DNA of 64,000 bases, taken from Bdellovibrionales bacterium (lineage in GTDB: Bacteria; Bdellovibrionota; Bdellovibrionia; Bdellovibrionales; UBA1609). Under the pieces are notes generated by a model. That model did no database searches and was not told the origin of the DNA. It was given only the letters and a program-made list of their open reading frames with translations. Location of the stretch: contig OZ241877.1 in NCBI GenBank assembly GCA_965203095.1, positions 1,024,001-1,088,000 of the forward strand. The letters run 5' to 3'. Numbering within the stretch: the stretch's first letter is position 1; each line of letters begins with the position of its first letter. Positions 22,642 to 44,245 of this stretch are shown here, piece after piece. The translations under genes and the position numbers were made by a program.

Positions 22642-23793
22642 GTGGGCCTATCCCTTAAAAAAAGCAGGATGCCCTTTAAAATTAAAGTCCCTGCCAAAAG
22701 GAATCTTTTGGCACAAGGCTTGCCTTATCAAATTCTTTTTTCTTTTAAAAAAGACTCTTCTAAACAGATTTTTAAAGCTTTGAGAAAAGACTTAAGAACT
22801 GGGGTTCAACAAGAGGTTTTAGTTAAAATCTTTTTAAAGGACAGTTCTTCTTTCCGGGAAGAGTTTGAGTCGCTTTCTCAAATATCTTCATCTTATTGTG
22901 TTCGTTTGATTGGTTTTGAAAGTTTTGCTGGAAAAAACAGTTTGATTTTAGAATACATTCCAGGGGTCAGTCTTTTTAAACTGATAGAGAGCTTTTCGCT
23001 CTCATCTGAAGAGATAGGGCATATTTTGGTTTCCATTTATAAAGGGCTTTTGGATTTGAACCGGCAGAACCTTTGCCATGGGGATCTCAGTTTGGACAAT
23101 GTGCTCATTGATGAGAAGGCTCATATTAAGCTTATCGATTTTGGAAAAGCCAATTATGAGCGAGGCACTCAAGGGACAGCTCCTTTTATGGCTCCGGAAA
23201 TTTTAAAAGGAGCACGAGCCAATTTCCTTTCCGACTTATATTCTTTAGGTGTTATAGAGACTTTACTTCGAACACCCTGCCCGCTCACTTCCCTAAAAGA
23301 TTTGAAGGCGGAAGATTTAAGTCAAAACAACCCTCTTTTATTTAAAGATCCAAAAAAAAGATTTTTTCCAGAGAGTTTAAAAAATCAGGATATATCTTTT
23401 GAACAGCTGAGATTTCTCAGCTATAAGGTTAAAGAGCTGTTGTCCCTTGCAGAATGTCGCCGACAGCCCACTTTAAAAAACTCTTGTTCGAAAAGGTCTG
23501 CTTTTTTTCCTGCTTTTGTGAAGAGTATGGTTTTTTTTCTTTTTTTGCTTTTTGCCGGTATGGCCAGCTCCCCGCCTTATATCTCTTACGGTTGGGTTAA
23601 AGTTTATACTAATGAATGGTTTGTTGTTCGTGTGGATGGTTTTCAATCTTACACACCTCTTGCTCTTCCTTTAAAACCGGGTTGGCGATTTATTGAATGG
23701 AGAAACCGTCAATCCCAAGGCATTAAAAAAATTTTTATATCTGAAGGAAAGGCTGTTTTTTTAAATGATCAAAGTTTTTTATCCGATAAATGA
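22642..23793 (+). CDS. Hanks-type Ser/Thr protein kinase with TM helix and small C-terminal beta domain
   Basis: VLVK, LEYIPG, HGDLSLDNVL, IDFG, GTAPFMAPE, DLYSLG. TM helix near aa 290-310. Confidence 0.88.
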   Translation: MGLSLKKSRMPFKIKVPAKRNLLAQGLPYQILFSFKKDSSKQIFKALRKDLRTGVQQEVLVKIFLKDSSSFREEFESLSQISSSYCVRLIGFESFAGKNSLILEYIPGVSLFKLIESFSLSSEEIGHILVSIYKGLLDLNRQNLCHGDLSLDNVLIDEKAHIKLIDFGKANYERGTQGTAPFMAPEILKGARANFLSDLYSLGVIETLLRTPCPLTSLKDLKAEDLSQNNPLLFKDPKKRFFPESLKNQDISFEQLRFLSYKVKELLSLAECRRQPTLKNSCSKRSAFFPAFVKSMVFFLFLLFAGMASSPPYISYGWVKVYTNEWFVVRVDGFQSYTPLALPLKPGWRFIEWRNRQSQGIKKIFISEGKAVFLNDQSFLSDK

Positions 23794-23861: not shown

Positions 23862-24647
23862 TTGGATTGGACTGATATAGGCTTGGGTTTTTTACAAGGA
23901 GCGACAGAGTTTTTGCCAGTATCCAGTTCTGGCCATCTGTTTTTGTTGGAAAGTTTTTTAAATACTGGTTCCAGTTCTCTTTATTTTGTCTTACTGCTAC
24001 ATTCAGCAACTCTTTTTTCTATATTTGTTGTGTTTTTCAAAGATCTCAAAGTTTTTATTTTAAAATGGCCCTCTAAAAGCCATCGCCAATTATTGTTTAA
24101 GGTCTTGTTGTCCCTTATGCCATTGTTTTTAGTGGGTTTGTTTTTGAGATCTTTTGTTGAGCAAAGTTTTGAAAAAAGCACTGTGGCTTGGGGCTTTTTC
24201 AGCTCTGGCTGTATCCTTTTCTCTCTTTTTTTTGTTCGAAAACGAAATCGAACTTTACAGGAAATAAACTATTTTCAAGCTCTGTTGATTGGCACAGCCC
24301 AAGCTTTCGCTGTTTTGCCGGGTTTTTCCCGCTCGGCATGGACTATTGCTACCGGCCTTTACTGTGGCTTGTCTGGTCGGAGTGCTGTCTATTTTAGTTT
24401 TTTGATTTCCATCCCCGCGATTGCTGGTTCTGCTTTAATGGCTTTAGTTTTAAATTTGAAGACTCCACCGGAAAGTGCGGTGGCAGGTTGGACCTCAGTA
24501 ATGTCATTTTCTTTGGCTTTTCTATCTGCTTTTTTAAGTGGGCTTTTAAGCCTACTTTTAGTTTTAAAAATGACTCAGGAGAGGAAACTTCCGTTTTTTG
24601 CCTTTTACCTCTTGCCTTTAAGCTTGATAGTTTATTTGTTCTTATAG
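23862..24647 (+). CDS. uppP: Undecaprenyl-diphosphate phosphatase (BacA)
   Basis: LQGATEFLPVSSSGHL, AVLPGFSRS, FSFLISIPAIAG. Confidence 0.95.
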   Translation: MDWTDIGLGFLQGATEFLPVSSSGHLFLLESFLNTGSSSLYFVLLLHSATLFSIFVVFFKDLKVFILKWPSKSHRQLLFKVLLSLMPLFLVGLFLRSFVEQSFEKSTVAWGFFSSGCILFSLFFVRKRNRTLQEINYFQALLIGTAQAFAVLPGFSRSAWTIATGLYCGLSGRSAVYFSFLISIPAIAGSALMALVLNLKTPPESAVAGWTSVMSFSLAFLSAFLSGLLSLLLVLKMTQERKLPFFAFYLLPLSLIVYLFL

Positions 24648-24671
24648 GCGATTTTTAGAACGTATCAGATC

Positions 24672-24863
24672 TTATAATAGGACATCTAATGGGGGAATAT
24701 GACTGGCTTTTATAATTTTGAGCTTGTCTGCTGTCACATTATCCACAGCTTTTAAGCACAGCTTTTCCAACTCCTTGTTGATCTGATCGATAGCTTGTTT
24801 TGAGGTTTTCATTCCTTTCTGTTTAAAAAGATTTTTTATGTTTTTTGTGACGACTAAATGCAT
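24672..24863 (-). CDS. Bacterial histone, Bd0055/HBb-like, with divergent L2/alpha3 motif
   Basis: LVVTKNIKNLFKQKGMKTS..AID.I.K.LE.LCLKAV aligns with my recollection of B. bacteriovorus Bd0055 (LVVTSKVKKLIKEKGQMNTS..TIDVLSKAIEQLCLKGV). 63 aa, strong RBS aggagga. Confidence 0.85.
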   Translation of the reverse strand: MHLVVTKNIKNLFKQKGMKTSKQAIDQINKELEKLCLKAVDNVTADKLKIIKASHIPPLDVLL

Positions 24864-24909
24864 ATCTCCTCCTTATACTTCATGAAATATTGTAGCTCCA
24901 AAGATCCCC

Positions 24910-25149
24910 TTATCTTTGCCCTGTGCTACTCCCACCACTTCGTCTTTTACTTCGTTTTCTTTTTTGTTTTTTGCCAGATCGGTAGTCTCCTCTCCTCACC
25001 TGAGCTAAAAGTTCAGCATAAGAATTGACAGTAAAATCAGTATCTTGATGGGCATAATCGCATTGTTCTGTTGTGGATTGGAAATCTGTTTTTTTAGCTC
25101 CTGCCAAGGGCAAACAGATAAAAACACCTAAGACAAAGATATATTTCAT
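24910..25149 (-). CDS. Small exported hypothetical protein with basic C-tail
   Basis: RBS aggagg, signal peptide MKYIFVLGVFICLPLAGA, tail KKQKRKRSKRRSGG. Confidence 0.65.
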   Translation of the reverse strand: MKYIFVLGVFICLPLAGAKKTDFQSTTEQCDYAHQDTDFTVNSYAELLAQVRRGDYRSGKKQKRKRSKRRSGGSSTGQR

Positions 25150-25331
25150 TTTAACCTCCTTATATGTGATAGCTATTTCATGGTTTTATGAAACCTAAAA
25201 AGATCTCTCACAAATTCTCATTCATCAGAGATGCATATAAATTATAAATGTTTTTCAAAAAATAAAAAGAAAAAACATAAAAAATTAACTAAAAAAAGTT
25301 TTTTCAGGCCAAAAATCAGCTTTTTTGAAGT

Positions 25332-26492
25332 TTATTTTTGAACCTGATAAGATATTTGCACATGGATGGGGCGGGAGTCTGTGTTTTTAAAGATGATATT
25401 TCTCCCATATTGCCTCCATTCCTTTTTAGCTCCTTTGATAAAATCCACCCTCACAGTTCCGGGAACAGGCTCTTGGCTTAATAAAACACTATTCTCAAGA
25501 GAGTTTTTTATATGTTGAGACAGTTTTTTCAACTCCTGCCCATAATCAGAACTGCATATATTGATATTATGGCCTCCTGTCAGTTCTGCCAGCTCAGCTA
25601 TAGAATGCGAAACATGAGCCACATGGGATTTTTCCCTTTCTGATTCTAAACAAGATGAGGATGAAGAATCATCTGTGACAAGAATGTTAAAGGCAATAAA
25701 CTTTTTATCTAAATGGCCGAAAACTTTGTTAAAAGTTCGGACAACATGTTCAGCGGTGGTGGCTCTTTTGCTGTCTTCTTTTCTCTCCGGTTCATTGGTA
25801 ATAATGATAGAGACAAAGTCAGCAGAAGGACGAAAAAGAGATCGATTATCTAAAGAGGCCCTTTGCATAGCCGACTTCAAAGAGCGAAGAGGTTGTTCCA
25901 GCCCAGAGTGGCAGTAAGGTGGTCTTTTACAGTTTAAAGATGGCAAATGAGAGATAGTGTGCAAAAACACTTCTTCATAATTAGAGATTTTTGGGCTTAA
26001 AATTTTAGATTTTAAAATACGATGTCCATCTTCTAAGTTCATCAGCCCCCCATATTGTCCATAAGGATTTAAGACATGATCTTTCCAGCTCTGTTGAAAA
26101 GCATGAAAATTTTGAGAATCTCCATGGTCAGCTGAAGTGAAACCTATTTGCCAATTATAGTTAGAGATAAAAGACAAGGCACTTGACAGAGAATGGCCCA
26201 ACTGTCCTAAGTGATGATACATTGAAGGGGATGTATCTACAATGAAAAGCATATCTAATAAGGCCTTTTTTTCCTCCAAAAAAAACTCCTCTTTAACATA
26301 AACCCTTTTAAAAGAACTTTCTTTTGATAAAGAAGCCATAGAGAACCTCCCATCGGCTTCTTTTAAGCTTTGAAATCCTGAAGAGTTGCAAGAGGCCCAC
26401 AAACTGCTGGAAAAAAGCAACAGTCCTGCTCGTTTTAAACACCAGTTTTTGTATTTGTTAGACAAAGGCTTTTTTTGATATATAGTTTTCAT
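25332..26492 (-). CDS. Lipoprotein with vWA/MIDAS-like domain
   Basis: Lipobox LWASC, LDMLFIVDTSPSM (DxSxS), SIIITNE, ICSSDYG. Paralogous to 60546-62063. Confidence 0.7.
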   Translation of the reverse strand: MKTIYQKKPLSNKYKNWCLKRAGLLLFSSSLWASCNSSGFQSLKEADGRFSMASLSKESSFKRVYVKEEFFLEEKKALLDMLFIVDTSPSMYHHLGQLGHSLSSALSFISNYNWQIGFTSADHGDSQNFHAFQQSWKDHVLNPYGQYGGLMNLEDGHRILKSKILSPKISNYEEVFLHTISHLPSLNCKRPPYCHSGLEQPLRSLKSAMQRASLDNRSLFRPSADFVSIIITNEPERKEDSKRATTAEHVVRTFNKVFGHLDKKFIAFNILVTDDSSSSSCLESEREKSHVAHVSHSIAELAELTGGHNINICSSDYGQELKKLSQHIKNSLENSVLLSQEPVPGTVRVDFIKGAKKEWRQYGRNIIFKNTDSRPIHVQISYQVQK

Positions 26493-43972: not shown

Positions 43973-44245
43973 ATGAACAAATCAGAAATTGTAAGTGCCA
44001 TTGCGGCTAAAACCAATTTATCCAAAGCCAAAGTGGATGAAGTGGTCTCTTGTTTTTTTGAAACAGTCAAAACCGCTGTGAAAAGAAAAAAAAGTGTAAA
44101 GCTTATTGGTTTTGGCACTTTTTCATCCAGTGAGAGGAAAGCAAGAACAGGGCGTAATCCTCAGACAGGGGATAAAATACAAATCCCTTTCTGTCATTAT
44201 CCAAGATTTAAGCCCGGCAAAGAATTTAAAGATTATTTGAATTGA
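43973..44245 (+). CDS. hup: DNA-binding protein HU
   Basis: MNKSEIV, VKLIGFGTF, RKARTGRNPQTG, PRFKPGKEFKD. RBS gaggag. Confidence 0.95.
   Translation: MNKSEIVSAIAAKTNLSKAKVDEVVSCFFETVKTAVKRKKSVKLIGFGTFSSSERKARTGRNPQTGDKIQIPFCHYPRFKPGKEFKDYLN

Follow-up and report, generated by a model that had tools for sequence, protein, structure and literature searches.

The closest described relative of the protein studied here is Bd0055, or HBb, of Bdellovibrio bacteriovorus (structures 8FVX, 8FW7, 8CMP, 9EZZ and 9F0E), a histone of the 'bacterial dimer' class. The HBb residue R51 is held in a clamp by both D58 and D49, and the DNA phosphates are contacted by K12, T23, S24, A25, K52, T53 and R57; R57 and T53 rank high in their number of DNA contacts, and molecular dynamics adds contacts by N22, S9, T8, K10 and K16 (PMC11317129). 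The same L1–L2 DNA site is reported for Bd0055 by Hocher 2023, whose histone census leans on Pfam models and finds a Bd0055 homologue in 67% of genomes. Attempts to delete bd0055 in B. bacteriovorus are described in both HBb papers, and Hocher 2023 judges the gene to be of probable importance for fitness. The 'bacterial dimer' category was defined by sequence clustering, and the RKTxxxxD motif is present in it (Schwab 2024, PMC11390915). Its members have a shortened α2 and an α3 of 3-4 residues, carry conserved α1 lysines presumed to bind DNA (K10, K12 and K16 in HBb), form dimers but no confident higher oligomers, and count as abundant nucleoid proteins that bind DNA. The same α3-truncated fold is found in the face-to-face histones HLp of Leptospira perolatii (9QT0-2) and HTkC of Thermococcus kodakarensis (9F2C), and HLp keeps the Arg-Asp clamp as R55–D62 (PMC12701072). 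The clamp and the RKTV motif have been presented as universal, functionally linked histone signatures (bioRxiv 10.1101/2025.06.26.661778). As far as the available text of the literature on Bd0055, bacterial histones and the Arg-Asp clamp goes, we found no description of a clamp-less Bd0055-type histone, and the supplements to that literature (Hocher Supplementary Fig. 3 and Table 1; Schwab Supplementary Figs 14–15) could show such a protein.

Here we analyse P0001, a protein encoded in the window, by which we mean the whole 64,000-nt stretch of DNA examined. By homology, fold and position P0001 is a Bd0055-type 'bacterial dimer' α3-truncated histone. It is the positional orthologue of Bd0055/HBb and the sole histone-fold gene product found in the genome of this Bdellovibrionaceae bacterium, and it probably still acts as a homodimeric, non-specific DNA-binding nucleoid protein in which loop L2 is predicted to be held by Leu48, His55 and Pro57 instead of the Arg-Asp clamp.

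The variant gene and its sequence matches

The features of the locus and of the protein are collected in Table 1. A scan of positions 24400-25400 returned no sigma-70-like promoter site, and the sole terminator-like site in this interval lies on the + strand, at 24536-24557, within the BacA-family gene. A phmmer search of all PDB chains with P0001 retrieved HBb (8fvx and 8cmp, E values of 4.3e-9 and 4.7e-9, residues 3-56), the next match being the weak one to Leptospira HLp (9qt0, E value of 0.024). The alignment sets ADKLKIIKASHI of P0001 opposite ADGRKTVMARDI of Bd0055/HBb, and the Bd0055 motif given in the first-pass annotation of this DNA is the one printed in the HBb row. With HBb numbering first, the substitutions are R51>L48, T53>I50, D58>H55 and R57>S54. 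The exchanges R>L, T>I and D>H, and with R51 and D58 the loss of the Arg-Asp clamp, had been claimed in that annotation and are real in P0001.

A profile of canonical histones (A2) matches P0001 with an E value of 2.1e-10. The Pfam histone model PF00808 (gathering cut-off 21.4 bits) gave no match to P0001 even at E ≤10; Pfam as a whole returned chance-level matches alone (UPF0154, DUF2789 and Gag_p10), and NCBIfam had no family for the protein. At E ≤0.01, PF00808 matches 3 of the 28 sequences of the variant family compared with 14 of 15 canonical ones. Since 25 of the 28 are missed, censuses that apply Pfam cut-offs could overlook the variant, and some Bdellovibrionota may have been counted wrongly as histone-free, provided that the variant still binds DNA.

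The C-terminus of P0001 ends in LDVLL and is devoid of the Ser/Asp-rich tail (DSSEDHS, for example) of most of its variant relatives in alignments A1 and A3. P0002, which is 98% identical to P0001 and lies on another contig, has the same C-terminus without the tail.

Table 1. Position of the genes, ribosome-binding site and predicted structural elements in the window.
Feature	Position	Strand	Remarks
Ser/Thr protein kinase domain gene	22642-23793	+	Downstream of the histone gene
BacA-family gene (PF02673, 'bacitracin resistance protein BacA')	23862-24647	+	Downstream of the histone gene; place of ligA in relatives
Variant histone P0001, CDS	24672..24863	-	63 aa and TAA, stop included; intact
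L2/α3 motif, D46-K-L-K-I-I-K-A-S-H-I-P57	24693..24728	-	Rewired relative to HBb
Helix α2, residues 22-45	24729..24800	-	Predicted dimer handshake, contacts 32:32, 28:35, 36:28
Loop L1, residues 16-21	24801..24818	-	S21 = HBb S24; K19 replaces HBb N22
Helix α1, residues 5-15	24819..24851	-	K10 and K14 = HBb DNA contacts K12 and K16
Shine-Dalgarno site, AAGGAGGA	24867..24874	-	Strong; 4 nt 5' of ATG; from sequence
Neighbour ORF, 79 aa	24910..25149	-	Next ORF upstream; separate from the histone
Neighbour protein, 386 aa	25332..26492	-	No Pfam family; not part of the histone
HU/IHF-family gene (PF00216)	43973-44242	+	One of three in the genome

Predicted fold and homodimer

AlphaFold2 predicts a histone fold with a short α2 and a 3-residue α3 turn for P0001 from each of two alignments. 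With a mixed alignment (pLDDT of 81.6) the helices span residues 5-15 and 22-45, followed by a one-turn α3 at 53-55; an alignment restricted to variant-type sequences yields the same elements (pLDDT of 80.0). A Foldseek comparison of the model with the PDB places the HBb chains on top (TM 0.76-0.82, 42-46% identity over the fold), followed by HLp and the archaeal HTkC (TM 0.73-0.82, 24-27% identity). Together with the HBb match at an E value of 4e-9, the model agrees with the Bd0055-type fold that the first-pass annotation had assigned from the sequence.

The P0001 homodimer was predicted with an ipSAE of 0.83, compared with 0.00 for the best of three controls; this mark is reached by 20 of 30 same-chain-pair structures and by 1 of 23 single-chain structures. 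Contact agreement between runs was 100% and the partner pLDDT was at least 89. In the predicted dimer the α2 helices cross (32:32, 28:35) and L1 pairs with L2 (21:51, 19:50), as in HBb. Because HBb dimers have been solved, the score may reflect the likeness of P0001 to these structures, that is, the model's memory of them. P0001 resembles HBb in its short α2, its one-turn α3 and its predicted homodimer, and the hydrophobic dimer core of HBb (V11, L31, I35, L38 and I59) is kept; the N-terminus is 2 residues shorter.

HLp and HTkC keep the clamp and form tetramers via conserved Arg/Asn residues, whereas P0001 is without the clamp. Archaeal nucleosomal histones of the HMfB type share with P0001 the paired L1–L2 loops and the invariant Lys of RKT, and the hydrophobic residue that follows the Lys motif in HMfB has its like in the V, I, A or L found at position 51 of the variant family. 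P0001 differs from the HMfB type by the absence of the Arg, of the Thr and of the Asp seven residues downstream, and its α2 and α3 are shorter.

The variant genes of two sister genomes (L007:1480-1701 in G004 and L012:1483-1701 in G008) carry a 4-residue insertion in α2. From its length, this insertion would amount to one extra turn and make α2 more like the longer archaeal helix again.

Signature of the variant family

The equivalent of HBb K52, K49, is Lys in all 28 sequences of the variant family. Position 55, the place of the clamp residue D58, is His in 27 sequences and Gln once, and never Asp. Position 48, which corresponds to R51, is hydrophobic in 26 of 28 (Leu 20, Met 3, and Ala, Ile and Val once each) and Arg in the other two. 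Position 50 (HBb T53) is Thr in 16 sequences, Ile in 9 and Val in 3, and position 54 (HBb R57) is variable. The RKTxxxxD motif of the 'bacterial dimers' is therefore absent: P0001 reads LKIIKASH, in which the Lys alone is kept, and in the family Arg is found in 2/28, Thr in 16/28 and Asp in 0/28.

Basic residues are gained nearby. Position 52 (HBb M55) is Lys in 22 sequences and Arg in 4, position 47 (HBb G50) Lys in 20 and Arg in 3, position 19 (HBb N22) Lys in 17 and Arg in 10, and position 7 (HBb S9) Lys in 22. Pro occupies position 57 (HBb V60) in 25 sequences, and position 46 is Asp or Glu in 22/28. S21 (HBb S24) is conserved in 27/28, K14 (HBb K16) in 26/28, and position 10 (HBb K12) is Lys in 25 and Arg in 3. 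Relative to HBb, P0001 itself has thus lost R51 (to Leu), D58 (to His), R57 (to Ser) and, as in its sub-clade, T53 (to Ile), and has gained S9>K, N22>K, G50>K, M55>K and V60>P; in its L2/α3 segment L48 stands for R51, I50 for T53, K52 for M55, S54 for R57, H55 for D58 and P57 for V60, around the invariant K49. The variant core carries a net charge of +5.8 and has a pI of 9.3, which makes it more basic than its canonical counterpart (+3.7 and 8.3); P0001 has a pI of 9.7, against about 8.3 for the HBb type.

The clade-wide changes are therefore the replacement of R51 by a hydrophobic residue, the replacement of D58 by His and the nearby gains of Lys or Arg, while T>I is found in a sub-clade only. 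Where R>L, T>I and D>H had been read as one joint change, the Arg and Asp parts hold throughout the clade and the Thr part does not (Ile in 9 of 28).

Two metagenomic sequences, P0019 and P0021, read ADRRKTVKKSHI, with the R, K and T kept and His already in the place of Asp. This suggests D>H as the earliest of the changes. In the histone tree (43 rows, 74 columns), which is mostly unresolved, both sequences remain unplaced.

P0019 and P0021 stand out as R-retaining intermediates with the motif RRKTVKKSHI. Long, basic, disordered-looking N-terminal extensions are present in P0021 (110 aa, encoded on a 1.14 Mb contig), where the extension covers about 55 residues, and in P0013 (88 aa).

Probable DNA binding without the clamp

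P0001 keeps the equivalents of HBb K12, K16, T23, S24, K52 and T8. Among the α1 lysines, HBb K10 corresponds to N8, and the neighbouring S9 is replaced by K7. We infer from these correspondences that DNA would still be bound through the paired L1–L2 site, using the kept K49, S21, K10 and K14, and that the loss of the basic R51 and R57 would be offset by K7 (S9), K19 (N22), K47 (G50) and K52 (M55). Judged by its residues, the DNA face would be rewired and not lost, and a different DNA-binding mode is possible in the variant. As for the loop itself, His55 might pair with Asp46 (HBb D49), with Leu48 in the site of the Arg, and so provide another lock on the same loop. The sole hint for the Asp46–His55 pairing comes from P0013, which has Gln at both 46 and 55.

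A bolder proposal would make this lock a regulatory element. In a lineage devoid of both the Arg-Asp clamp and the RKT triad, the DNA loop would be locked by His55–Asp46, Pro57 and a packed Leu48, and the near-invariant His would render the loop geometry, or DNA binding, sensitive to pH or charge. We put this forward tentatively, as something that may well prove wrong. If true, such a loop would act as a chromatin switch of a kind that no histone is known to possess.

Histone-fold proteins that function without touching DNA are known among eukaryotes. The fold of P0001 could likewise have been kept while the protein was co-opted as a protein scaffold or an RNA binder, without coating or bending DNA. 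DNA-binding residues of L1L2 have been lost (the R51/D58 clamp, R57 and, in P0001, T53), and the loss of the clamp and of RKTV could mean that the canonical L1L2 geometry has gone too. The genome has three HU/IHF genes, which could cover its nucleoid needs; the Pfam histone models miss P0001; and bacterial histone folds may act outside DNA binding according to Hocher 2023. However, conservation within the variant family is highest at the equivalents of the HBb phosphate contacts K52, S24, K16 and K12, the new Lys and Arg residues share this face, and the core exceeds that of canonical histones in basicity. Moreover, the neighbourhood offers no obvious partner gene, its conserved members being ligA, the 386-aa protein and a small secreted-looking ORF. 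We therefore regard co-option as unlikely.

The reading of P0001 as a DNA-binding nucleoid protein bears on the role of the clamp. The single, conserved histone orthologue of a three-genus clade is without it, an exception found in nature to what is supposed to be a universal feature of histones. Should the variant still bind DNA, the clamp can be dispensed with, and the variant offers a natural set of compensating substitutions with which to probe its role. If DNA is no longer bound, a histone has been retired from chromatin with its fold kept, which would also be informative.

Distribution, rate and selection

The substitutions are not private to one assembly. The gene is covered by sequencing-run contigs from two studies, one of which is identical over 24598-25021. 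A second run contig has two differences from the gene, one synonymous and one K16R, and a third, from a strain about 95% identical, has I51V, A53S and K16R as its readable changes. Codons 48, 50 and 55 are free of differences among those listed for the run contigs (5 further differences are not displayed). P0002 and the genomes of the clade share the type as well.

A histone match was found in 60 of 61 genomes of the same order and the protein was read in all 60. The variant motif is present in 12 of them, namely the ten of its own genus (G000-G009) and one from each of two other genera (G011 and G026); the remaining 48 relatives have RKTV[ML]xRD without exception. The scores of a profile built from the 28 variant sequences are bimodal over 109 genomes of the family. 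At 90-123 bits, 29 of these genomes are of the variant type (10 in genus g1, 15 in g18 and 4 in g3), 17 of them assigned by score alone, and all other matches score at most 53 bits; three genomes, 64-82% complete, had no match to this profile. The 29 genomes of this type are all small, at 1.2-2.5 Mb. An exhaustive search of 1.84 billion representatives gave 14 clusters at E ≤0.001, all of the His type, and a word-based homologue search with P0001 gave 6 close relatives.

When pairs with the same LigA divergence (53% identity) are compared, the identity of the histones is 56% in the variant type (45 pairs) and 78% in the canonical type (55 pairs). The rate of the variant is thus about twice the canonical one, yet the variant is as conserved as LigA. 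The median dN/dS (NG86) is 0.21 for variant orthologues (30 of 66 pairs usable) compared with 0.09 for canonical ones (24 of 105 pairs usable), values that are rough since dS is saturated (at least 0.9 in all usable pairs). The variant histone is under purifying selection, and the near-invariance of H55, P57, K52 and K19 points to a new constraint, not to drift.

These data also bear on whether the loss of the clamp is mere damage, in a weakened histone that is heading for loss under the relaxed constraint of fast-evolving, reduced genomes. The small size of all 29 variant-type genomes and their long LigA branches would fit such a course, as would the roughly doubled rate of the histone and the missing Ser/Asp-rich tail of P0001. 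However, the 12 variant genes that were read are all intact, each of the 29 genomes has one match in an open frame of at least 66 aa, and the new residues are near-invariant (H55 in 27/28, P57 in 25/28, Lys or Arg at position 52 in 26/28). In addition to the conservation at the level of LigA and the dN/dS below 1, other small genomes of the family (G030, 1.2 Mb, and G015, 1.6 Mb) keep the canonical motif. Decay is therefore quite improbable, in line with the first-pass annotation, which had argued against it from the intact ORF and the strong ribosome-binding site.

Locus, orthology and copy number

Both variant and canonical histone genes of the order lie beside a gene for what we take, by eye from the neighbour sequence, to be the C-terminal part of LigA, the NAD-dependent DNA ligase. 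Of 30 loci, 25 show this adjacency, namely 10 of the 12 variant and 15 of the 18 canonical ones. Since the adjacency is common to both types, the variant is an orthologue of the canonical histone and not an extra copy. A single origin of the variant genomes fits the LigA tree (one change, with a weak support of 63/37); in this tree 12 canonical genomes split off with a support of 98/96, and the variant genomes lie on long branches. The locus of the window lacks the ligA adjacency and has the BacA-family gene there, while the clade-specific upstream neighbour is kept: the local gene order is rearranged in this genome.

The genome that contains the window amounts to 1.80 Mb in 2 contigs and is 90% complete. 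A search of this genome for a second histone with P0001 returned P0001 itself alone, and PF00808 and PF09123 returned nothing. A profile of 15 canonical histones revealed no canonical paralog in any of the 12 variant genomes, its hits besides the variant gene being two weak matches inside ORFs of 720 and 467 aa. A single match to the variant profile is found in each of the 29 variant-type genomes. With a completeness of 90% for this genome and of 83-95% for the other variant genomes, a paralog could in principle have been missed. The failure to find a canonical copy and the position beside ligA indicate that the variant stands in for the canonical histone instead of being added to it. The first-pass annotation had proposed a neofunctionalised variant that acts on a canonical histone as heterodimer partner, capping subunit or antagonist, in keeping with an L2/α3 motif which contributes to the DNA-binding site and is sharply unlike the canonical one; such a role is highly improbable, as it would have no partner histone to act on in any variant genome searched, the variant profile does detect canonical histones and longer paralogs in other genomes, the canonical locus is occupied by the variant gene, and the homodimer is predicted with confidence.

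The 79-aa ORF directly upstream of the histone gene has, by eye, a signal-peptide-like N-terminus and a very basic C-terminal stretch. It was found in the same place in 4 other variant genomes (tblastn, E <0.01; loci L003, L005/L032, which are the same stretch, L008 and L012), and its homologues share the pattern C..(Y/H)A.QDT and STG(Q/K)R. In 10 of 12 variant loci the gene for the 386-aa protein adjoins that of the histone; the L007 counterpart of this protein starts with what looks by eye like a signal peptide. In canonical loci a protein of about 440 aa (cluster c1) lies on the side of the 386-aa gene.

Finally, many genomes of the canonical type have a second histone-fold gene, with a longer open frame, mostly of 140-220 aa, and the motif RKTVMERDF; examples are L060 (G012:C1:718003-718952) and L064 (G055:C107:14098-14650). 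The variant profile detected no such longer gene in the 29 variant-type genomes. One of the longer paralogs has a Cys-rich N-terminal part. The longer paralogs may be of the Bd3044 type, which is mentioned by Hocher 2023, or of the ZZ type.
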